64,000 nt of DNA, from assembly GCA_963809375.1 (NCBI GenBank), contig CAWEJO010000007.1:108048-172047 (forward strand), written 5' to 3'. Below, piece by piece: positions 4,905 to 40,968 of this stretch. Each line of letters opens with the position of its first letter. Within the stretch, counting starts at the first letter, position 1. The notes under the pieces were generated by a model that searched no databases, was not told where the DNA came from, and saw only the letters and a list, made by a program, of their open reading frames with translations. Source of the stretch: an uncultured Chloroflexia bacterium. Lineage in GTDB: Bacteria; Chloroflexota; Limnocylindria; Limnocylindrales; CSP1-4. The position numbers and the translations under genes were made by a program.

Positions 4905-5329
4905 GGCCAGGCCATCGGCGGCGCCCGAGACCTTCAGGGCGGGCCGACCTCACCGCGACCTCGCCGCCCCAGTCGGTTCGTGGCTTGGTTCCTCCCGTAC
5001 CAGGACCATTCATCGCCTGAGCACAACGGCGGCGGTCAAGGCTCCAGGAGGACCGCGTCCGGCCTGCCCGAGGACGCCTTGTCAGCGATCTCACGATCCC
5101 CATTCGTAGACGGGCCGACAAGGCGTGGCGGCCGGGGTGCGTGACGAGCGGAAGGGGCAGCGGGCCGCCTTGTGCGACGTGCCTGTGCGTGGGGCATGAA
5201 TGGAGGTGGTAGCGGCACTCGGAATGGCGCGTGCCTCGACGGCCCGAGGCTGGAGCCCGGCCGCCCAAGGCCGCCGGACCGGATCGCCGGATCGCCCGGG
5301 GCCGCCGCCGCCCGCGGCTCAGCCACCGA

Positions 5330-6568
5330 CTACGGGCAGTACTTCGCCGCCTTGCCGATGTAGCGGTAGGGACAGCCCATGGCGTCGATGAACCAGAGCA
5401 TCGAGCTCTTGATCCTGTTCATCTCGGGCTTGATGCGCTCGTCGGCCGGGTAGTCCCACACGCCGAGTTCGACGGTGTAGCTGAACGCCTTCCAGGCGCC
5501 GTATCCCCAGTCGCGCGCAGTGCCGCTGTCGACGTAGTTGCTGCTGCCCTGCTCGGCCTTGTACCCGTTGCGGGCCGCCATCGCCTTCGCCAGGGCGATC
5601 GTGGCGGCATGGTCGTCGACGCTCATGTCCTTCGTCCGCGCCGCCCTCGTGTACCCGTACGGCCACAGGATCAGGCGGCCGTACGTGTGGAACGTCACGT
5701 AGCCCCGGATCTGCTGCTTGCCGTCGATGACTCGTGAGGCGAAGAAGGCCCGCATGGCGGCCGCCTCAGGCGTCGACCAGGGCTTCGGTCCGCGGTAGTA
5801 GGACGCCGTGGGGCGCGCGCTCACCAGCCCGCAGCAGCCCCACCGGTAGCCGTAGTTCCGGTTGATGTCCGTCCCGATCGCGCTCGTCCCCGGCGTCGGC
5901 TGGCGGTTCTTGCGCCACTGGTGGTAGCGCCCGCCGGCGATGTCGTACTCGTTGCCGTCGGGGTTCACCTCGAACACGATGAAGATCGAGCGCGTCCGAA
6001 CGAGGCGCGTGACCCGGGCATCGATGCCGTACCCGTCGACCAGCCAGTGCATCACCGCCAGCGTCGCCTCCGGGCCGAAGTGCTCGTTGCCGTGGGTGCC
6101 ACCGTCGAACAGGATCCCCACCTTGTCCTTCTCGGGGAGGGCGCTTGTCGTGATCTCCACGGCGATGAGGTCGCGGCCCTGGTACGACCTCCCGATGCTG
6201 AACTGGCGGACGATCGCCGGGTGGGCGGCGGCGACCGCCCGGACCTCGGCGACGATCTCGGCGTACGTGTGGTACTTGGTGTCGCCTGGCGGGAAGTCGT
6301 GGCTGGCCGCCGCGCCGGCACTGGGCGCGGCGGCAGCCGGCGTCGCGCCCTGCGCGCCCGCCGCGGGCCCTGCAACCGACGCCTGGCTGTCGCCGGGGTG
6401 GCCGAGCAGGCCCGGGCCCGTGGCGTCGGCCGACCGGGCCGGATCGCCCGCGGCCGCCGGGCCGGCGCCCGCCACGAGCGCGCCCGCGACGAGCGCGCCA
6501 GCCACCAGCCCGACGACCAGCCGTCTGGACGTCGTCGGGCGCCGGGGACCGCGATGCTGGTCGCGCAT
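5330..6568 (-). CDS. Secreted M14-family zinc carboxypeptidase
   Basis: Start taken at MRDQHRG (ATG at 6568), followed by a hydrophobic signal sequence LVVGLVAGALVAGALVAGAG. Has the M14 pattern YHTYAEI ... GGTHGNEHFG ... NPDGNEYD ... HTYG. Confidence 0.85.
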   Translation of the reverse strand: MRDQHRGPRRPTTSRRLVVGLVAGALVAGALVAGAGPAAAGDPARSADATGPGLLGHPGDSQASVAGPAAGAQGATPAAAAPSAGAAASHDFPPGDTKYHTYAEIVAEVRAVAAAHPAIVRQFSIGRSYQGRDLIAVEITTSALPEKDKVGILFDGGTHGNEHFGPEATLAVMHWLVDGYGIDARVTRLVRTRSIFIVFEVNPDGNEYDIAGGRYHQWRKNRQPTPGTSAIGTDINRNYGYRWGCCGLVSARPTASYYRGPKPWSTPEAAAMRAFFASRVIDGKQQIRGYVTFHTYGRLILWPYGYTRAARTKDMSVDDHAATIALAKAMAARNGYKAEQGSSNYVDSGTARDWGYGAWKAFSYTVELGVWDYPADERIKPEMNRIKSSMLWFIDAMGCPYRYIGKAAKYCP

Positions 6569-17495: not shown

Positions 17496-18482
17496 TCAGG
17501 ACGCAGATGGTGATCCGGCTATCGCCGGGTCGAGGTCGGGATCGGCGAGGCCGGCGGGCGCCGACGGATCGTCCAGGGCGAGCGCCTCGGCTTCGGGCGC
17601 GATGCGGCGGATGAGGCCGGTCAGGACCTTGCCGGGCCCGACCTCGACGAAGCGGGTCACGCCCGCGGCCGTCATGCATTGCACGGCGCCGATCCAGTCG
17701 ACGCCAGAGGTGAGGTGCTCGACGAGCTCGGATCGGCAGGCCTCGGCGGTGCGCAGCGGGCGCGCATCCCGGTTCGCGAGCAGGGGAGCGACGGGATCGT
17801 GGAAGTCCACGTCGGCGAGCACGCGAGCCATGCCGGCTGCCGCGTCCGCCATCAGCGGTGAATGGGCCGCGACGCTCACGGGCAGCACGATCGCGCGCTT
17901 CGCGCCGAGGTCCCTCGCGGCAGCGGCGGCTGCCTCCACGGCCTCGCGGACCCCCGACACGACCACCTGCCCCGGGGAGTTCCGGTTCGCGACTCCGAAG
18001 GTGCCATGCGCCCGCCCGGTCGCCACGAGCTCGTCGAGCCGCTCGTCAGGGAGGCCGATCAGGGCAGCCATCGCGCCGGGGTGACCCTCACCCGAGGCCT
18101 GCATCTGGCGGCCGCGCTCCCGCACGAGGCGCACCCCGTCGGCGAGCGAGATCGCGCCGGCCGCCACGAGCGCCGTGTACTGGCCCATCGAGTGGCCCGC
18201 GTAGAAGGCCGGCTCCAGCGCGGGAAGGCCTCTGGCAGCCCGCCGTTCCTCGAGCCCGCGCAGGAATGCGATCGACGCCGCGAGCAGCGCGGGCTGGGCG
18301 TTCGTGGTCAGGTCGAGGGTCTCGGCCGGGCCGTCCCAGGCAAGCGCGCTGAGCGCCTCGCCCAGCGCCGCGTCCGCCTCGCCGAAGACGGCAGCTGCGG
18401 CGGGCGACGCCTCGGCAAGCGAGCGACCCATCCCGACAGACTGCGATCCCTGGCCGGGGAAGACGAGCGCAAGCGTGATCAT
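17496..18482 (-). CDS. fabD: Malonyl-CoA:ACP transacylase
   Basis: Start MITLALVFPGQGSQ (ATG at 18482, with GAGGAGG just upstream). Active-site GHSMGQY, plus the NSPGQVVVSG motif. Confidence 0.9.
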   Translation of the reverse strand: MITLALVFPGQGSQSVGMGRSLAEASPAAAAVFGEADAALGEALSALAWDGPAETLDLTTNAQPALLAASIAFLRGLEERRAARGLPALEPAFYAGHSMGQYTALVAAGAISLADGVRLVRERGRQMQASGEGHPGAMAALIGLPDERLDELVATGRAHGTFGVANRNSPGQVVVSGVREAVEAAAAAARDLGAKRAIVLPVSVAAHSPLMADAAAGMARVLADVDFHDPVAPLLANRDARPLRTAEACRSELVEHLTSGVDWIGAVQCMTAAGVTRFVEVGPGKVLTGLIRRIAPEAEALALDDPSAPAGLADPDLDPAIAGSPSAS

Positions 18483-34635: not shown

Positions 34636-36099
34636 TCAGCGCCCCGCGAGCACCGGGCTGTCGGCCAGGGCCGTCACGACGTCGCCGAGCGATGCGGACA
34701 GGATCCGGGCGAGCGGCAGGTCGACGTTCCTGAGGTCGTCGCAGGCGCGGTGGTAGCAGGGGTCCGCGGCAAGGCCCGGCGTCCCGCCGGCGGCCGCCTC
34801 AGCCGGCGTCACGGCCTCCGAGGCCCCGGAGAAGACGCCCCCGATGGCGATCCCGGCCTGGTCAAATGGCCAGTGGTCCGACGAGGCACCCAAGGCGACG
34901 TCGACCGGGGCTCCGCCGGCCCGCCGGACGGCGGCCGCGAGGAGGTCGTGGATCCCGTCCGAGCCAACCGTCGGGGAGGCTTCGTGATACACGCCCGCGA
35001 AGCCGTTCGGGGAGCCGATCATGTCCGCGTTGAGGTAGGCGATGATCGCCTGCCGCTCGACGTCCGAGCGGGTCCGCACGTAGCGCGACGATCCGTGCAA
35101 CCCGAGCTCCTCGCCGCTCCAGAACGCGAGCCGGATGGTCGCGACCGGGCGTGTGCCGGCGAGCGCCCGGGCGATCTCGAGCAGCGCGGCGACGCCCGAC
35201 CCGTCGTCGTTGATGCCGGGGCCGTCGACGACCGAATCGAGGTGCGCACCGAGCATCACGACCGACGCGGGGTCGCTGCCCGGCAGCTCGGCGATGATCG
35301 ACGGGCTCGGCGTCGACGCCGTGTGGGCGTGGGTCGTGAGGCGGGCCGTCCCGCCGGCCGCGGCGATGGCGGCCAGCGCCTGGGAGGCGGGCAGCGACGC
35401 CGCCGCGGCCGGGATCTCGAGGCCGTGTGGATCGATCAACGTCGGGCGCAGGACGGCGCCGGACCCGGCCGCCATCACCGCCACGAATGCGCTCGCTCCG
35501 GCCTGCTGCGCGGCGAGGACCGCGTCGCGCCGGTAGCAGGGCCCCGACCGGACGAGCACGACCGCATGGGCCGGCAGCGTCCCGTAGTGGGTGGCGAGGC
35601 AGCCGCTCCCCGTGCCCGGAGCGCCGTGGGGATCCGCGTCGATCGCCACGACCGGGCCCTCGACCGTCCCGGGCGGAGCGAAGATGAGGGGGACGACGTC
35701 GGCGACCCCGAACCTCCGTCCGCCGGCCTCGAGGGACGACGAGCCGTCATCGACGAACGCGACGTCCGTCCACGCGTCCTCGGTCACCGTCCAGCCGGCC
35801 GTCTGGAGGATCGACTCGACGCGCGCTGCGGCGGCCGCGTAGCCCGGCGTGCCGGCGGCCCGGTAGCCGGGGTTCGGCGTGGTCGCGTCGGCGAGCTCGT
35901 GCAGGCGGTCGCGCAGCCCGCCTTCCGTGATGGCGGCGGCGACGGCGCGCGGATCCGGGCGCGGCGCCTCGGTCCCCGCCGGCTGGCCGCAGGCCCCGGC
36001 GAGCGTCATGGCGGCGAGCGCGAGGACTGTTGCGATGGAGCGCCGGCGGCCGCGCCGGACTCTCGGCGGGGACGCCCGGGCCGCGGCTCGCGATGCCAT
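34636..36099 (-). CDS. M28-family aminopeptidase, predicted lipoprotein
   Basis: Lipobox LAGAC after a basic N-terminus. M28 zinc motifs [25 protein letters not shown] and [12 protein letters not shown]. Confidence 0.85.
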
Positions 36100-36246
36100 T
36101 GCTTCATCGTAGCGACGGCGACGGCGCGGACACGGGCCGGGGCACGAGCCGGACGCGCCCGCCGTTCGCTCGTCCGCCGCCGCTCGGCCCGGCGACGCAT
36201 GCTCGCGTCGCGCCCCGTCCGCCGAGTCGCGCGGCCCGGGAATCGG

Positions 36247-36275
36247 AACGGCCGCCGGTCAGACCGACGGCCGTT
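36247..36275 (-). terminator. Strong hairpin downstream of small-ORF pair 1 (candidate terminator)
   Basis: AACGGCCGCCGGT-cag-ACCGACGGCCGTT gives a 13-bp stem with one mismatch. It lies 36 nt after the B1 stop. The minus-strand tail has only a short U run (CCGAUU). Confidence 0.4.
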
Positions 36276-36310
36276 GCGGATGCATGACGCTCACCCGGTC
36301 GAATCCCGGG

Positions 36311-36409
36311 TCAGTGCCACCGCTGCCCGGCCTCCAGCACGAAGGCGGAGGAGGCGAGGGCAGTGAGTGCGAAGAGGATCCGGAACGCGCTGACACGAAG
36401 CTGCTTCAT
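36311..36409 (-). CDS. Small hydrophobic protein B1 (32 aa): MKQLRVSAFRILFALTALASSAFVLEAGQRWH
   Basis: Hand-translated; too short for the ORF track. The ATG is 1 nt after the A1 stop (TGAcATG). It is a paralogue of B2, sharing F.R.L.ALT......VL.AGQRW-aromatic. Confidence 0.55.
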   Translation of the reverse strand: MKQLRVSAFRILFALTALASSAFVLEAGQRWH

Positions 36410-36410
36410 G

Positions 36411-36500
36411 TCAGTACCAACGGATCCCGGCACCCAGGGCGAGAGCGAGCGAGGCAAGCACCATCACGACAGTGGTGAAGCGCGCCAGGAACAGCTTCAC
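36411..36500 (-). CDS. Small hydrophobic protein A1 (29 aa): VKLFLARFTTVVMVLASLALALGAGIRWY
   Basis: Hand-translated. GTG start with GAGAGG 9 nt upstream, directly downstream of riboswitch 1. It is a close paralogue of A2, and many differences between them are synonymous (Leu, Gly and Arg codons). Confidence 0.6.
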   Translation of the reverse strand: MKLFLARFTTVVMVLASLALALGAGIRWY

Positions 36501-36535
36501 GGTTGGGAACCTCTCAGAAGGCGTGGCGCCCGCTT

Positions 36536-36622
36536 CCCTGGCAACCGGGCGTTCTCCAGCCGGCCGGACCGGAGACCCCTGGCTTTGCGTCCCCGCCTCA
36601 CGGCGGGTTTGCCCCTGGCAGG
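36536..36622 (-). promoter_or_regulatory. c-di-GMP-I (GEMM-I) riboswitch aptamer, copy 1
   Basis: Minus-strand RNA: CCUGCCAGGGGCAAACCCGCCGUGAGGCGGGGACGCAAAGCCAGGGGUCUCCGGUCCGGCCGGCUGGAGAACGCCCGGUUGCCAGGG. It contains the GEMM-I blocks CAGGGGCAAACC, a hairpin with a GNRA loop (GUGA), and GGGACGCAAAGCC. Confidence 0.75.
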
Positions 36623-36657
36623 TCGACGGGCGAAGGACGGAAGGTCCATCAGCGCGG

Positions 36658-36663
36658 ACGCTA
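36658..36663 (-). promoter_or_regulatory. Candidate -10 hexamer TAGCGT for riboswitch unit 1
   Basis: TAnnnT-type hexamer exactly 35 nt upstream of the conserved CCUGCCAGGGG. The same hexamer occurs at the same distance in unit 2, although the flanking sequence has diverged. Confidence 0.3.
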
Positions 36664-36807
36664 CAGTCGGTCGGCTGGTCGCGCCATGGTACTAATCGGT
36701 AGTTCGGGGGAGCCACCTCGGGTGATGTGCACCCGCGCACCGGCGCCTCGGGCTCGGGGTTCTCCCTGAGCCGGGCATCGTCGCGTCCCGTGGCATGGCC
36801 GGAAATC

Positions 36808-36839
36808 GCTGGAGGCCACCGACGACGGTGGCCTCCAGC
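36808..36839 (-). terminator. Perfect 13-bp hairpin downstream of small-ORF pair 2 (candidate terminator)
   Basis: GCTGGAGGCCACC-gacgac-GGTGGCCTCCAGC, 35 nt after the B2 stop. The minus-strand tail is GAUUUCC. Confidence 0.5.
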
Positions 36840-36873
36840 TTGTCGTGCGAGATGTCCGGGACAGACCCCCGGC

Positions 36874-36999
36874 TCAGAACCATCGCTGCCCGGCAGCGAG
36901 CACGTAGACCACGCTCGTCAGGGCTGCGAGCGTCCGGGCGAACCCGGCGATCGGGGAGCCCCACGCGCGCTTCGTCGCACTCGTGGACCGCGGCGCCAT
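36874..36999 (-). CDS. Small hydrophobic protein B2 (41 aa): MAPRSTSATKRAWGSPIAGFARTLAALTSVVYVLAAGQRWF
   Basis: Hand-translated. The ATG is 16 nt after the A2 stop. It shares its C-terminal half with B1 and ends in the same AGQRW-aromatic-stop motif. Confidence 0.55.
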   Translation of the reverse strand: MAPRSTSATKRAWGSPIAGFARTLAALTSVVYVLAAGQRWF

Positions 37000-37015
37000 C
37001 GTTCGAACCCCGGGC

Positions 37016-37168
37016 CTAGGGGACGATGCTCAGATCGACACTGCCCGGATCGACACCCCCGACGACGGACGCGGCCATCGCGCACCAGCGGATGCCGGCC
37101 CCGAGCGTCAGCGAAAGTGCGGCCAGGATCATCACGACCGAGGTGAAGCGCACCAGGATCTGCTTCAC
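37016..37168 (-). CDS. Small hydrophobic protein A2 (50 aa): VKQILVRFTSVVMILAALSLTLGAGIRWCAMAASVVGGVDPGSVDLSIVP
   Basis: Hand-translated. GTG start with GAGAGG 6 nt upstream, directly downstream of riboswitch 2. The first 29 residues align with A1; it reads through the position of the A1 stop. Confidence 0.6.
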   Translation of the reverse strand: MKQILVRFTSVVMILAALSLTLGAGIRWCAMAASVVGGVDPGSVDLSIVP

Positions 37169-37200
37169 TACGAACCTCTCTGCGTTCGAGGACCCGTCGC

Positions 37201-37287
37201 CCCTGGCAACCGGGCGGTCTCCGGCCGGCCGGACCGAAGATCCCTGGCTTTGCGTCGCCGCCTCGCGGCGGGTTTGCCCCTGGCAGG
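37201..37287 (-). promoter_or_regulatory. c-di-GMP-I (GEMM-I) riboswitch aptamer, copy 2
   Basis: Minus-strand RNA: CCUGCCAGGGGCAAACCCGCCGCGAGGCGGCGACGCAAAGCCAGGGAUCUUCGGUCCGGCCGGCCGGAGACCGCCCGGUUGCCAGGG. It has the same 87-nt length and blocks as copy 1, with a GCGA tetraloop. The substitutions in the distal helix preserve pairing. Confidence 0.75.
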
Positions 37288-37322
37288 TGGGATCGGGGAA
37301 GGCCGTCTGGCCTCCGCCGTGA

Positions 37323-37328
37323 ACGCTA
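37323..37328 (-). promoter_or_regulatory. Candidate -10 hexamer TAGCGT for riboswitch unit 2
   Basis: Same hexamer and same 35-nt distance to the aptamer as in unit 1. A GTACC.TGGC motif lies 24 nt upstream in both units. Confidence 0.3.
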
Positions 37329-37357
37329 TTCCCCGTTTGGCGCGCCGGCCACGGTAC

Positions 37358-37922
37358 CTATGGTGCGGGTTCGGCGTCCGCTCGGGCGATGTGCGGCGCG
37401 GCACCGCGGCGCATCGCGGCAACGATGATGACCACCACGCCGACGCCGATCAGGATGTCGCCGACGCTGAAGATGTTGGCGCCGGGCATCCAGCGCGGCA
37501 TGGCGAACACGTCGGTCAGGAGCTCCAGGTTCGGATGCGCCACGGCGGCGCTGTTCGAGTACTCGGTGCCGAGGACCCGGCCGAGCGCCGCCAGGGCGGA
37601 AGCGCCCGCGGGCATGTAGCCGCCGTTCGCGACGATCGCGGCCAGGTTGCAGGCGGCGCCCGCCACCAGGATCGGGACGCCGGTGACCCGCCAGTTCGCG
37701 GCGATCGCCAGCAGCACCGCCACGGTCGACAGCGACGTAGAGGGGCGGGCCGAGGCTCCCGACGCGCTCGGTGACGGCAGGCGAGAACAGGATGACCTGC
37801 CCGAGGAGCCCGAAGACGAAGACCGGCGCCCACCGGAACTGGAGTCCGGCCAGGTTGCCGAGGCGGCCGCCGAGGAGCAGGCCGAGGACGAGACCCACCG
37901 GGATGGCGTACAGCATGAACAC
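37358..37922 (-). pseudogene. DUF5317-like polytopic membrane protein, interrupted by one frameshift (or a sequencing indel)
   Basis: The N-terminal part MFMLYAIPVGLVLGLLLGGRL...RFRWAPVFVF...GPPLYV lies in the frame of the 37922 ORF. The C-terminal part LSTVAVLLAIAANWR...AAIVANGGYMPAG...AMPRWMPGANIFSVGDILIG lies in the frame of the 37358 ORF. The junction is near 37731-37741. The family assignment is from memory. Confidence 0.55.
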
Positions 37923-38424
37923 GGCGCGTCACCTGGGGGCGGCTGCTGGGTTGACCCATCGCGGATCCCGCCCGCGCGAGGGTTCGGCCGGACCGCCCGG
38001 CCAGTCGGGTGCAGTCTCCCGCCCGGCCGCTGCCCGGTCCGTCGCCCGAAAGTCCCACGCGGGCTGGTTCGGGTCCTCCCCCCGGGTGGGGCGGCGCTGC
38101 CCCGGCGCGCGTGGAAGTACTTTCGTCCCGGTGCGCGAGCGCCGGCATTGCCCGGAGAATGCTGGTCTGGGCCCACCATGGGCCGGTCCGGACGCGCTTG
38201 GCCGCGCCCCGGAGTGCCGCCCCCAGCTTGCCGGGGAGATGCCCGACCAGCCCGCAATCGCAGATTCGCCGCCCGTGAGGCGTGCCGCGACCCGGCCGAC
38301 CCAGCTCGGTCCGGAGATCGAGCACTTCGCCGGCTCGGCGCGCGTCGCCGACCTCGGCCCCGACCCGGCGGACCCTGGCTTCCACGCCGACGACGAGCCG
38401 GGCGCGCCGCCGTCCCCGTCATCG

Positions 38425-40968
38425 ATGCGCTCGGCCCAGGTTCGGGTCGCGATCGTCGCCGGGCTCGTCGCGGGAGCGGCGGCGCTCCTGTCCGTCCTCC
38501 TGCTGCCGCACATGCGGCCGTTCGGGGCGCCCTACCACGTGCCGTGGTGGCTGGTCGCGCTGGGCTTCTTCATCGCGGACTGGAAGGTCCTCCACGTCCA
38601 CTTCCGGCGCGAGACGCACGTGTTCACGATGATCGAGGTCCCCGTCGTGGCTGGCCTCTTCCTGCTCGCGCCGGCCGAGTACCTGCTCGCCGCCGTCACG
38701 GGCGGCGGCCTCGGGCTCCTCGTCACGGGGCGGGGCTCGTGGCTGAAGATGGCGTACAACCTGGCGCTCGCGGCCCTGATCGGGATCGTGATCCTGGCCA
38801 TCTTCCAGCTGTTCACCGACCACACGCCCCCACCGTCGCTTGCCGACTGGGTCGCCGCGGTCCTGGCGACCCTGGCGGCAGCCGTCCTCGCCGCGATCCT
38901 CACCGCGACCGTGATCACGGCTTCGGGCGGAGCGCCGCAGTTCCACAAGCTGCCCGAGATGATCCGGTTCGGCAGCCTGATCGCGGTCGCGAACACCAGC
39001 CTCGCGCTCCTGGCGATCACGGTGATGTGGCAGGACCAGGCAGCCATCGCCCTGGTCGCCCTGCCCCTGCTGGCCCTCTTCTTCGTCTACGGCGCCTACC
39101 TGTCCGAACGCGAGAAGCATCAGCGCCTCGAGCTGCTCTACCAGTCGAGCCGGATCATGCAGCACAGCCCGGAGCTGGACTCGGCGATCATGGCCGTGCT
39201 CGAGCACGCCCGCGAGATGTTCCGCGCGGAGACTGCCGAGATCCTGCTCTTCCCGCAGCCCGGCTCGGGCGAGGCGCTCCGGACGGTCGCCCGGAGCGAG
39301 GGCGAGCCCGAGGTGATGGTGCCGGTGCCGTTCGATCCCGACGATCCGCTGGCCCGGCGGACGGCGACCGAGGGCCGCGCCTTCTTCCCGGTCGACCCGC
39401 GCGGAGCGACCGACAGCCAGGTGATGCTCAGCCCGCTCGCGGGCGACTCGGGCATCTTCGGGATGATGCGGGTCGCCCACCGCCTGACGGCCGGGACGAG
39501 CTTCGACACCGACGACCTGCGCCTGCTCGAGACGCTCGCCAACCAGGCGGCGGTCGCCCTCGAGAACGGCCAGCTCGAGCAGTCTCTCGCCGAGCTGTCG
39601 CGCCTCAAGGAGCAGCTCCGGTTCCTGGCCTACCACGATCCGCTCACCAGCCTGCCGAACCGGATCTCGATGGCGGAGGAGATCGACACCCGCCTCTCGA
39701 CCCCGGGTGCGGAGCCCCCCACGATCCTGTACATCGACCTCGACGACTTCAAGGTCGTCAACGACTCGCTCGGCCACCACGCCGGCGACGAGATCCTCGT
39801 CGCGGCGTCCGACCGGATCCGCAACTGCCTTGGCCCGGGCGACGTGGCGGCCCGCCTCGGCGGCGACGAGTTCGCCGTGCTCCTCACCGAGGGCGAGCGA
39901 TTCGACAGGTCGACCGCGACGAGCGCGGCGCTCCTCCGGGTGCTCCGCTCGCCGTTCGTCCTCAACGGCCAGGAGATGACCATCGGGGCGAGCATCGGGA
40001 TCGCGACGTGGCGGGCGGGCCAGTCGGCCGACGAGCTGCTGCGCGACGCCGACGTCGCCATGTACGCCGCCAAGACCAGCGGCAAGCGCCGCATCGCCCG
40101 GTTCGACCCGTCGATGCACGCCGCCCTCGTCGCCCGCCACACGCTCTCGGTCGAGCTCGCGCGTGGGCTCGAGCGCGGGGAGCTCGAGGTCCACTACCAG
40201 CCGATCGTGGAGCTCGTCTCGGGCCGCATCACGGCGATCGAGGCGCTCGCCCGCTGGCGCCATCCGGTGCGCGGCCTGATCTCCCCCGACGAGTTCATCG
40301 CGATCGCCGAGGAGACCGGCTCGATCAACACGCTCGGCCGGATCGTCCTCGTCCAGGCCGCGGCCCAGGTCGCCCGCTGGAGCAGGCTGCCCGACATCGG
40401 GCCCGACCTGCGGGTCTCCATCAACGTCTCGCCGGTGGAGCTGCTCCAGGTCGACTTCGTGGGTGACGTCCGGTCGGCCCTCGAGATCGCCGGCCTCGCC
40501 TCCGACCAGCTGATCCTGGAGGTCACCGAGACGGTCATGCTGCGCGACACGCAGCCGACGATCGCCAAGCTCGACGAGCTGACGAGGATCGGCGTCGGCG
40601 TCGCCGTCGACGACTTCGGGACCGGCTACTCGTCGCTGGGCTACCTGCGCCGGTTCCCCGTCAGCGTCCTCAAGATCGCCCGGGAGTTCGTCCCGCCGTC
40701 GCACTCGCAGACCGCCGAGGCTGACTGGGCCGTCGCGAGCACGATCATCGCCCTTGGCCGGGCGATGAACCTGCGGGTCGTCGCCGAAGGCATCGAGGAG
40801 GCGGTCCAGCTCGACCGGCTCCGGGCCATGGGCTGCGAGTTCGGCCAGGGGTACCTCTTCCTCCCGCCGCACGACGCCGCCACGATCGAGCCCTACCTGC
40901 GGGGCGTCGTCGAGCTCGACGGCGGCGCGTCGGTCGCCACCCGGGCTGCCCGCGAGCCGGCCGCCTGA
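38425..40968 (+). CDS. Membrane-bound GAF-GGDEF-EAL protein (diguanylate cyclase/phosphodiesterase)
   Basis: About 8 TM helices, then a GAF-like region. The GGDEF domain has RLGGDEFAVLL and the EAL domain has YQPIV ... AIEALARW ... DDFGTGYSSL ... KIAREF. The start is uncertain (ATG at 38425, ATG at 38240 or further upstream); the track start at 37771 overlaps the divergent gene. Confidence 0.9.
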   Translation: MRSAQVRVAIVAGLVAGAAALLSVLLLPHMRPFGAPYHVPWWLVALGFFIADWKVLHVHFRRETHVFTMIEVPVVAGLFLLAPAEYLLAAVTGGGLGLLVTGRGSWLKMAYNLALAALIGIVILAIFQLFTDHTPPPSLADWVAAVLATLAAAVLAAILTATVITASGGAPQFHKLPEMIRFGSLIAVANTSLALLAITVMWQDQAAIALVALPLLALFFVYGAYLSEREKHQRLELLYQSSRIMQHSPELDSAIMAVLEHAREMFRAETAEILLFPQPGSGEALRTVARSEGEPEVMVPVPFDPDDPLARRTATEGRAFFPVDPRGATDSQVMLSPLAGDSGIFGMMRVAHRLTAGTSFDTDDLRLLETLANQAAVALENGQLEQSLAELSRLKEQLRFLAYHDPLTSLPNRISMAEEIDTRLSTPGAEPPTILYIDLDDFKVVNDSLGHHAGDEILVAASDRIRNCLGPGDVAARLGGDEFAVLLTEGERFDRSTATSAALLRVLRSPFVLNGQEMTIGASIGIATWRAGQSADELLRDADVAMYAAKTSGKRRIARFDPSMHAALVARHTLSVELARGLERGELEVHYQPIVELVSGRITAIEALARWRHPVRGLISPDEFIAIAEETGSINTLGRIVLVQAAAQVARWSRLPDIGPDLRVSINVSPVELLQVDFVGDVRSALEIAGLASDQLILEVTETVMLRDTQPTIAKLDELTRIGVGVAVDDFGTGYSSLGYLRRFPVSVLKIAREFVPPSHSQTAEADWAVASTIIALGRAMNLRVVAEGIEEAVQLDRLRAMGCEFGQGYLFLPPHDAATIEPYLRGVVELDGGASVATRAAREPAA

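Follow-up and report, generated by a model that had tools for sequence, protein, structure and literature searches.

Few guides to the regulon of a second messenger are as direct as riboswitch cargo, and the locus described here raises the question of what is being regulated when the sole cargo of a cyclic di-GMP (c-di-GMP) riboswitch is a pair of peptides too small for annotation. The locus lies within a stretch of 64,000 nucleotides (nt), referred to below as the window, from contig CAWEJO010000007.1 of an uncultured Chloroflexia bacterium of the Limnocylindrales (assembly GCA_963809375.1). An earlier note on this DNA had described four small hydrophobic open reading frames (ORFs) on the minus strand, arranged in two A/B pairs and associated with riboswitches, and had suggested that they form a second-messenger-controlled small-membrane-protein module. 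All four ORFs are present as described, and a class I c-di-GMP aptamer is found 5' of every A gene at which its presence could be tested. It can be stated with high confidence that A1, B1, A2, and B2 are translated, riboswitch-controlled membrane peptides. Judging from their sequences, they would represent two paralogous types of single-pass membrane micro-peptide belonging to an undescribed family.

Each A/B pair follows its own aptamer, and all of the features in this paragraph are on the minus strand. In unit 1, the aptamer (36622-36536; Rfam RF03167, 61.5 bits where the gathering score is 59; a same-clan match of lower score that overlaps it is suppressed) is followed by A1 (36500-36411), a canonical A type with a GTG start that encodes the 29 amino acids (aa) VKLFLARFTTVVMVLASLALALGAGIRWY. 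The canonical B-type gene B1 (36409-36311; ATG start, 32 aa) is coupled to A1 and begins one base past the A1 TGA, which confirms the TGAcATG junction that had been proposed. In unit 2, the aptamer (37288-37202; Rfam RF01051, a full-length match of 54.9 bits, with the gathering score at 35) is followed by A2 (37168-37016; GTG start, 50 aa), a long A variant with a 21-aa tail beyond GAGIRW, and by B2 (36999-36874), which counts 41 aa from its first ATG, with the true start uncertain, and ends in AAGQRWF. The sequence GAGAGG, which had been reported before both A genes and resembles a Shine-Dalgarno (SD) sequence, can be read at 36515-36510, 9 nt before the A1 GTG, and at 37180-37175, 6 nt before the A2 GTG. 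B2 is divergent in that it keeps the AG-Q-RW end with Ala for the preceding Glu and an Arg within the hydrophobic stretch; it is conserved in a strain-level relative (metagenome contig L001) with two N-terminal substitutions.

The breadth of the family was established by protein searches. A profile of the four peptides run against a collection of 5.8 billion proteins retrieved 42 small homologues of two clear types, and an exhaustive hidden Markov model (HMM) search over 1.84 billion cluster representatives with a cut-off of E ≤ 1e-3 yielded a small-ORF family of 227 clusters (50% identity). Type A is about 29 aa long, with the consensus VKANLARFT...ALTLGAG(I/M)RW, while type B is about 33 aa long, with the consensus ...KAQAFR...ALASSALVLEAG(Q/H)RW. 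A1 fits the family consensus VK..LARFT..........ALxLGAG(I/M)RWx, and B1 fits the B consensus ...FR.L.AL.ALASSA.VLEAGQRW(H/K/R). The two types align colinearly without internal gaps and have K, R, two Ala, Leu, A-G, and R-W in common, which indicates that A and B are paralogues. The earlier note had not recognized the family, and neither do the resources consulted here: the four peptides and two consensus peptides have no significant match to a Pfam or NCBIfam family, no curated profile of known small membrane subunits (KdpF, CydX, AcrZ, and similar) matches the peptides, and the best result of a PDB profile search (E 0.68) is the SecG transmembrane (TM) helix, a chance match. A literature search likewise returned no paper on the peptide family and none that links Limnocylindria to c-di-GMP. 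Within the 64 kb, a six-frame scan for hydrophobic ORFs ending in G-x-R-W-x-stop found A1, B1, and B2 only; A2 has the same motif 22 codons short of its stop, and the sole other match to G-x-R-W-x-stop (17499-17513, plus strand) is not preceded by a hydrophobic stretch.

The C-terminal AG-x-RW that had been described in the four peptides stands. The aromatic residue or Cys that was said to follow it does not, as this residue is variable or absent. In A, nothing follows the W in 7 genes, one variable residue follows it in most, and 5-18 aa follow it in about 10%. The residue after A-G is I, M, V, or L in A and Q, H, or R in B. Extended A variants are found elsewhere (protein P0008 and the second unit of locus L002), and because such long tails occur in other lineages too, the 21-aa extension of A2, which is present as noted, is a recurrent variant and not an accident.

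The earlier note had argued from the divergence of A1 and A2 that these ORFs are under protein-level selection rather than arising by chance, and this is upheld by the abundance of homologues and by a coding pattern of substitution. Between A1 and A2, 15 of 28 codons are different (7 synonymous and 8 conservative changes). Among 91 distinct A genes, the mean pairwise per-site difference is 0.22, 0.119, and 0.368 at codon positions 1, 2, and 3, respectively, and the ratio of nonsynonymous to synonymous differences (pN/pS) is 0.43. TM-type B genes behave in a similar manner (0.33, 0.20, and 0.50), and codon choice varies widely for the invariant G-A-G and R of A as well as for the A-G of B. When an internal ATG is taken as its start, B mostly begins 1-4 nt past the A stop, a gap that fits translational coupling. 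As a separate observation, the L001 copy of B1 (5267-5370) features a +1 insertion (atccttcctcgc in place of atcctcttcgc) that breaks the frame past 12 codons, and no other difference from the window changes an amino acid when read in the B1 frame. The insertion is probably an assembly error, or B1 could be decaying in the L001 strain.

The possibility that the AG-x-RW motif is a domain of larger proteins was considered and rejected, because the longer HMM matches that were inspected all proved to be ORF calls over-extended 5' through the riboswitch or read-throughs past the motif. Gene callers that extend A or B upstream through the riboswitch make "hypothetical proteins" of 60-200 aa whose N-terminal parts are translated aptamer (e.g., P0004, P0017, P0019, P0186, P0201, P0264, and P0283), and the riboswitch translations …GKPVARRGRKARDL…, …PGQTRREAGTQSQGS…, and …RANPSRGGDAKPG…, in three frames, recur in these over-extended "proteins". 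Of the four genuine peptides, the public protein collection holds A2 alone (as the identical P0001), with A1, B1, and B2 uncalled.

The association with the riboswitch was followed in both genomes and metagenomes. When genomes, one for each species, were scanned with a DNA pattern that required the aptamer core, at least 119 loci were found; among the matches listed, to which all counts of genome loci in this text refer, genuine A genes are present at 86. Matches in isolates (e.g., Streptomyces, Paracoccus, and Duganella) are without an A gene. Since this pattern had demanded the aptamer core, a second scan of metagenome contigs was keyed on the A coding sequence alone, with the aptamer ignored. 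It found 125 A genes, 113 of which have at least 230 nt upstream, and an aptamer lies 5' of all 113 (106 identified by a strict regular expression and 7 by Rfam). A c-di-GMP-I match is also found by Rfam immediately 5' of A at all 7 metagenome loci that were reached via protein identity. The riboswitch link is obligate, and both the homologue search and the GEMM-I co-occurrence that the earlier note had suggested examining came out in favor of its proposal. Chloroflexota is the label of 79 of the 86 A-positive genome loci, and these carriers are mostly metagenome-assembled genomes (MAGs) of Candidatus Limnocylindria, Limnocylindrales, or "uncultured Chloroflexia". The other seven are contigs of 2-22 kb within MAGs of other phyla and are probably mis-binned. 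The family is found in soils and sediments.

The aptamers of the window and of related loci are full-length covariance-model matches above the gathering score, with the GGCAAACC and ACGCAAAGCC cores present. For many of them, the best model is that of the c-di-GMP-I-GGC variant, with 59-68 bits against a gathering score of 59 (window 36536-36622; L006-L010, L162, L180, L184, L210, L214, and L223). However, both window aptamers have the canonical ACGCAAAGCC, with A where the GGC-variant consensus has G, and they are therefore read as ordinary class I despite the best score of one of them with RF03167. Aligned to the Rfam consensus, their CAGGGC and ACGCAAAGCC segments would supply G and A, and not the G47 of the GGC variant, at the first two of the ligand-contact positions G20/A47/C92 (Vc2 numbering). 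The canonical A is present in every GGC-scoring aptamer that was read in sequence (the window and L006-L010), and the GGC-variant label probably reflects cross-matching that the short P1b/P2 in this lineage brings about.

The RNA control element probably extends beyond the aptamer into the A ORF, as suggested by an unusual sequence constraint at the start of the gene. A codons 1-8 are almost always GTG AAG GCG AAC CTG GCG CGC TTC (L012-L128; window 36477-36500 and 37145-37168), a segment left untouched by the scan pattern, and GTG is the start codon in 84 of the 91 A genes. Non-modal synonymous codons for Ala, Leu, and Arg account for 15 of 328 (4.6%) in codons 2-8 vs. 339 of 796 (42.6%) in codons 11-27 (nominal Fisher p 2e-43; given the relatedness of the sequences, trust should be placed in the effect size alone). 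The start segment is predicted to fold as GUGAAG(G)CG-loop-CGCGCUUCAC, with the start codon buried. A GUGAAG/CUUCAC hairpin that would pair the start codon with codons 8-9 is predicted in each of the two window units and by RNAalifold for the consensus; the window units have it as a 7-bp version, GUGAAGC/GCUUCAC, with that of A1 contained within the first 26 nt. Two A genes with an ATG start have a matching ACC-to-ATG change in the start hairpin. In many family members, the SD is found in a small local hairpin with a covarying anti-SD (GACUC…GAGUC, CCUUC…GAAGG), and in window unit 2 it is predicted to be paired with an upstream CCUC (CCUC/GAGG). Run on 107 sequences, RNAalifold retrieved the aptamer together with a vestige of the start hairpin but no conserved long-range alternative pairing, and no U-tract terminator was found after the aptamer. 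Given the lack of a U-tract terminator, the placement of the SD and GUG in local hairpins, and the synonymous freezing of the first 24 nt, control is most likely exerted at translation initiation, and it is plausible that an expression platform reaching into the ORF provides this translational control. Because of the RNA constraint in codons 1-8, the conservation of "VKANLARF" is to be read as largely RNA-level. The protein-level signal of A is in the helix and the terminal motif.

The topology of the peptides can be predicted from the distribution of charge. The mean flank charge is +2.0 on the N-terminal side and -0.3 on the C-terminal side of A, and +2.6 and -0.3, respectively, in B. According to the positive-inside rule, a positive N-flank and a near-neutral C-flank point to an N-in/C-out orientation, which would place AG-x-RW at the outer face of the membrane. 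The C-terminal tails of A are rich in Asp, Glu, and Trp, and the helices of both types are rich in small residues (ALASSAL, LASMAL), like those of helix-packing peptides.

The module has two more conserved members, namely DUF5317 and a GAF-GGDEF-EAL enzyme. In the Pfam-annotated contexts, the order of the locus is (DUF5317)-GAF-GGDEF-EAL-DUF5317-riboswitch-A-B, with riboswitch-A-B sometimes repeated 2-3 times, and the module is flanked by leuCD/ilvBNC/leuA or hrcA-grpE-dnaK. A same-strand DUF5317 gene lies directly upstream at 67 of the 86 genome loci, with 10 others untestable owing to the edge of the locus, and at 73 of the 78 testable metagenome loci. The median gap between DUF5317 and A at the genome loci is 224 nt, and it contains the aptamer. 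A GAF-GGDEF-EAL ORF is found at 64 of the 86 loci. In some genomes, two DUF5317 paralogues flank the GGDEF-EAL gene (L007 3598-4167 and 7026-7670; L009 1454-2023 and 4881-5510), and riboswitch-A-B follows the downstream one only.

In the window, the DUF5317 membrane-protein gene (37922-37358, minus strand) is directly upstream of unit 2 and appears in the ORF list as two overlapping frames. Compared with L001 (96.7% identical), it is frameshifted by an extra C at about 37734, in TACGTCGCTG, and the public annotation consists of the 121-aa C-terminal part alone (P0080). The L001 orthologue is intact, with 196 aa and a match to PF17248 (2e-24, 86.7 bits against a gathering score of 25); the frameshift in the window either stems from a sequencing error or marks a true pseudogene. 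The multi-TM GAF-GGDEF-EAL gene (38041-40968, plus strand; start approximate, taken from the 975-aa L001 orthologue) is divergently transcribed. Its product matches GAF_3 (4.5e-12), GGDEF (1.8e-40), and EAL (8.4e-66) in Pfam and is 52-58% identical to the copies at 19 genome loci that are among the 25 best tblastn matches. A fusion of GGDEF-EAL with DUF5317 was entertained as a Rosetta-stone link and set aside as too weak, there being two stop-free MAG cases: L083 (2872-4563) and L106 (1107-4523) have no in-frame stop between the end of EAL and DUF5317. The domain order of the L106 candidate looks inconsistent, and an assembly or frameshift artefact is possible.

DUF5317 itself is not mentioned in any paper that a literature search returned. 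A confident AlphaFold2 model of one member (m3179ed737670; P0043, 185 aa) has a mean predicted local distance difference test (pLDDT) score of 81, a predicted template-modelling (pTM) score of 0.77, and five TM helices. The invariant residues cluster in the long loop preceding the last helix (N99-G-G-x-M-P, Y121-S-N-S, T136-D137, and N149-x-F-S-x-G-D155), the 99-152 portion of which is the less confident part of the model. By the charge rule, this polar loop would face outward. The resemblance of NIFSVGD to FNxAD, together with a single Joint Genome Institute (JGI) record in which a homologue is labelled "lipoprotein signal peptidase", had raised the question of whether DUF5317 might be an aspartyl protease of the LspA or GxGD kind. 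As a matter of homology this was rejected, since alignment by hhalign against E. coli LspA gave a probability of 1.3%, the best Foldseek match to the PDB had an E of 7.5, and the PDB profile search was empty. DUF5317 may have an undescribed fold.

The remaining features of the window frame the two units. Unit 2 is closed by a terminator-like hairpin (36838-36809, minus strand) with a 14-bp stem as folded, followed by CGAUUUCC (-32.8 kcal/mol, z = -6.3 vs. shuffles); it was not called by a scan for the U-rich terminator consensus, and in L001 its loop is altered and its stem retained. A second terminator-like hairpin (36275-36247, minus strand; -26.6 kcal/mol, z = -3.9), after which CCGAUUCC follows, closes unit 1. 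Both hairpins presumably act as terminators. A spacer of about 190 nt separates the unit 2 hairpin from the unit 1 aptamer, an M28/PA-domain peptidase gene (36099-34636, minus strand) is downstream of the unit 1 hairpin, and no promoter-like sites were found on either strand within 35800-37800. The unit is tandemly duplicated in this genome. The aptamer cores and first 28 A codons of the two copies align closely, while the parts downstream do not, and the whole-length mean column identity is 74% with the unalignable parts included. In several genomes, the whole unit (aptamer and A, with or without B) is repeated in tandem 2-3 times (window 36311-37288; L041, L050, L058, L067, L069, L138, L147, L182, and L184; JGI 3300056388 contig).

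What, then, might these peptides do? The best explanation is that they are c-di-GMP-dosed membrane peptides that modulate the DUF5317/GGDEF-EAL module, a proposal to which we assign about an even chance of being right as a whole. Each A-B pair would constitute a separate short transcription unit comprising a class I aptamer, an SD, A, a coupled B, and a terminal hairpin, and the cellular level of c-di-GMP would set the output of A and B via the riboswitch. The peptides would then insert N-in/C-out, with AG-x-RW exposed at the outer face of the membrane, on the side where the invariant polar loop of DUF5317 is also predicted. There they could bind and modulate DUF5317 and, through DUF5317 or directly, the neighboring multi-TM GAF-GGDEF-EAL enzyme, and the module would serve as the output or feedback arm of a self-contained c-di-GMP circuit. 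The partnership of the peptides with DUF5317 and GGDEF-EAL, as suggested by synteny and topology, is a tentative proposal that we consider somewhat short of even. The complete relay, in which c-di-GMP controls its own membrane synthase/phosphodiesterase in Limnocylindria-type Chloroflexota by way of a riboswitch, a micro-peptide, and the DUF5317 loop, is more doubtful still; in it, the AG-x-RW ends would dock on the invariant extracytoplasmic loop of DUF5317 and so alter the activity of the adjacent GAF-GGDEF-EAL enzyme. If true, second-messenger feedback of this type would be new, and it would provide both the first function for DUF5317 and a riboswitch expression platform that overlaps the first 8 codons of its cargo.

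Several observations weigh against this explanation. The tie between the peptides and DUF5317 is one of synteny, 9 of the 86 genome loci are without a DUF5317 gene directly upstream, and DUF5317 has no structural relative in the searches of the PDB described above. Every carrier is a MAG or a metagenome contig. Part of the apparent protein conservation at the N-terminus of A is in fact RNA conservation, and the RNA evidence has its own weak points. Covariation in the start hairpin is not significant, with 81% of positions paired and the observed value reached by 166 of 500 shuffles. In ViennaRNA ensembles of 82 aptamer-to-ORF sequences, in which P1 was either forced or had its 5' strand blocked, the accessibility of the SD is unchanged in 72, and no direction is callable. 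As neither of these tests nor the RNAalifold consensus clinches the matter, we do not assign the switch an ON or OFF sign. Lastly, 15 of 48 ORFs downstream of A are B' variants with a non-hydrophobic body (e.g., ...NGTLPVVVVVASPARPHPDIVIEAGQRWT), in which only the (I/L)EAG(Q/H)RW end is kept, and a purely transmembrane role for B is hard to fit with them. These ORFs, found just after A at L039, L052, L084, L085, L112, L122, L023, L080, L126, L047, L050, and L128, end in (I/L)EAG(Q/H)RW-x-stop, with the R codon always CGC, and one subclade has a weak coding signal (0.168, 0.138, and 0.205 at codon positions 1, 2, and 3). The B' ORFs may be variants that still function, or B genes in decay that have retained their 3' end.

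Of the alternatives, the one that survives best is that A and B are signal-peptide-like precursors and that DUF5317, as an intramembrane hydrolase, cleaves them or exports them, with the release of a short (I/M/Q/H)-R-W-x or helix-fragment cue that acts between cells or is directed into the cell. The n-h-c architecture and the N-in/C-out charge bias would fit such precursors, as would the conservation on both sides of A-G and the persistence of the motif when the body changes. For its part, DUF5317 offers two invariant Asp residues (T-D137 and G-D155) at a spacing of 18 positions, along with invariant Asn, Ser, and Tyr in a predicted extracytoplasmic loop, and the JGI label cited above points in the same direction. 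However, DUF5317 has no detectable kinship to LspA or to any solved protease, and the lipobox of LspA substrates, with a +1 Cys after L-(A/S)-(G/A), was never seen in A or B. A tail of 0-18 aa after the W makes a defined C-terminal product unlikely, and the same path to a membrane protease would be closed to the B' variants, which are not of the TM type. The conserved neighborhood also has no C39/ABC (ATP-binding cassette) exporter, Opp system, or Rgg-type receptor. Genes for double-glycine or ribosomally synthesized and post-translationally modified peptide (RiPP) maturation (C39-peptidase ABC exporter, radical SAM, lanthionine synthetase, and similar) are absent from the Pfam-annotated neighbors at 10 loci, which consist of DUF5317, GAF-GGDEF-EAL, housekeeping leu/ilv, hrcA-grpE-dnaK, and similar genes. 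Overall, we consider a processed signal unlikely.

Slightly less likely again is that A and B are pore-forming or depolarizing peptides akin to type I toxins such as TisB and Fst, whose c-di-GMP-gated dose would slow growth or remodel the envelope, with DUF5317 unrelated or protective. Small toxic peptides are typically of this size, with one hydrophobic helix, tight post-transcriptional control, and units multiplied in tandem, and a GUG start with a sequestered SD suggests deliberately low translation. Yet the family shows stable vertical synteny between housekeeping leu/ilv genes across the class and is not patchy or mobile as toxin-antitoxin loci are, and strong conservation of its terminal motif is more in keeping with a specific partner than with generic membrane damage. 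No antisense RNA or antitoxin candidate turned up, although no dedicated search was made.

It is also conceivable, if improbable, that the peptides are themselves membrane-tethered receptors or buffers, whose E/G-A-G-x-R-W ends, possibly as dimers, would hold c-di-GMP by contacts of Arg with guanine and by stacking of Trp. Contacts to c-di-GMP are typically made by Arg and aromatic residues. The most conserved feature of the family is the Arg-Trp motif, preceded in B by Glu, which outlasts the replacement of the TM body in B', and the genes adjoin an enzyme that makes and breaks c-di-GMP. Against this, the charge distribution predicts that the C-terminus is outside the cytoplasm, and the AG-x-RW motif is not known to fit any defined c-di-GMP-binding signature (RxxxR/DxSxxG, RxxD).

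Least probable of all is that the ORFs do not function as proteins and are by-products of an RNA element, such as an expression platform or leader ORFs whose translation is what matters, for although A codons 1-8 are conserved at the nucleotide level, the start codon is inside a predicted hairpin, and B' bodies are poorly conserved, A codons 11-27 and the whole of TM-type B drift synonymously with their amino acids kept, the invariant G-A-G-x-R-W is written in many different codons, and there is no common gene for a leader to regulate, as the downstream genes differ (M28 peptidase, leuC, and ilvB) and a hairpin intervenes.

Whichever function the peptides prove to have, the finding bears on the c-di-GMP biology of Limnocylindria, an abundant uncultured class of Chloroflexota, and on DUF5317, a widespread membrane-protein family. 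A control element that overlaps the first codons of an ORF would provide a clean and testable case of dual RNA and protein constraint. In addition, public databases hold many spurious "proteins" translated from this riboswitch, an annotation artefact that is to be fixed.

The comparison with known systems places the module in context. With respect to the canonical GEMM-I (RF01051) and GGC-variant (RF03167) riboswitches, one difference lies in the expression platform, which in this family appears to reach the first 8 codons of the ORF. SHP/ComS and the enterococcal pheromones derived from signal peptides are made from short precursor ORFs in Firmicutes. A and B resemble them in their minimal length, in their basic N-terminus and hydrophobic core, and in having the information at the extreme C-terminus. 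In contrast to these systems, no Rgg/RRNPP receptor, PptAB, or Opp genes are found near A and B, the residue after RW is variable, and the helix is conserved as well as the C-terminus. MgrB, which acts on PhoQ, is a small membrane protein that serves as a feedback regulator of a membrane sensor. By analogy, A and B would likewise be single-pass peptides of 30-50 aa that are made under the output of a pathway and act back on a membrane signaling protein of the same regulon, although there is no sequence relation to MgrB and a riboswitch takes the place of the transcription factor.

The closest precedent is the CD1980.2 family of C. difficile, which comprises seven membrane-associated paralogues of 58 aa, five of them behind class I c-di-GMP riboswitches that are OFF switches acting via premature termination; the proteins promote sporulation, and the authors report no homologues outside C. 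difficile (June 2026 preprint). In both cases, multicopy small hydrophobic proteins are the sole cargo directly downstream of class I c-di-GMP riboswitches, and both are paralogue families that annotation missed. The Chloroflexota peptides are set apart by size (29-33 aa), by motif, and by phylum, and also by their division into two paralogous types in coupled pairs, by a fixed synteny with DUF5317 and a GGDEF-EAL enzyme, and by the lack of a terminator after the aptamer where the C. difficile switches rely on premature termination. A role in sporulation is not applicable to them. Taken together, the two families suggest that the design in which a c-di-GMP riboswitch governs a membrane micro-protein recurs, with an independent origin in each of two phyla.

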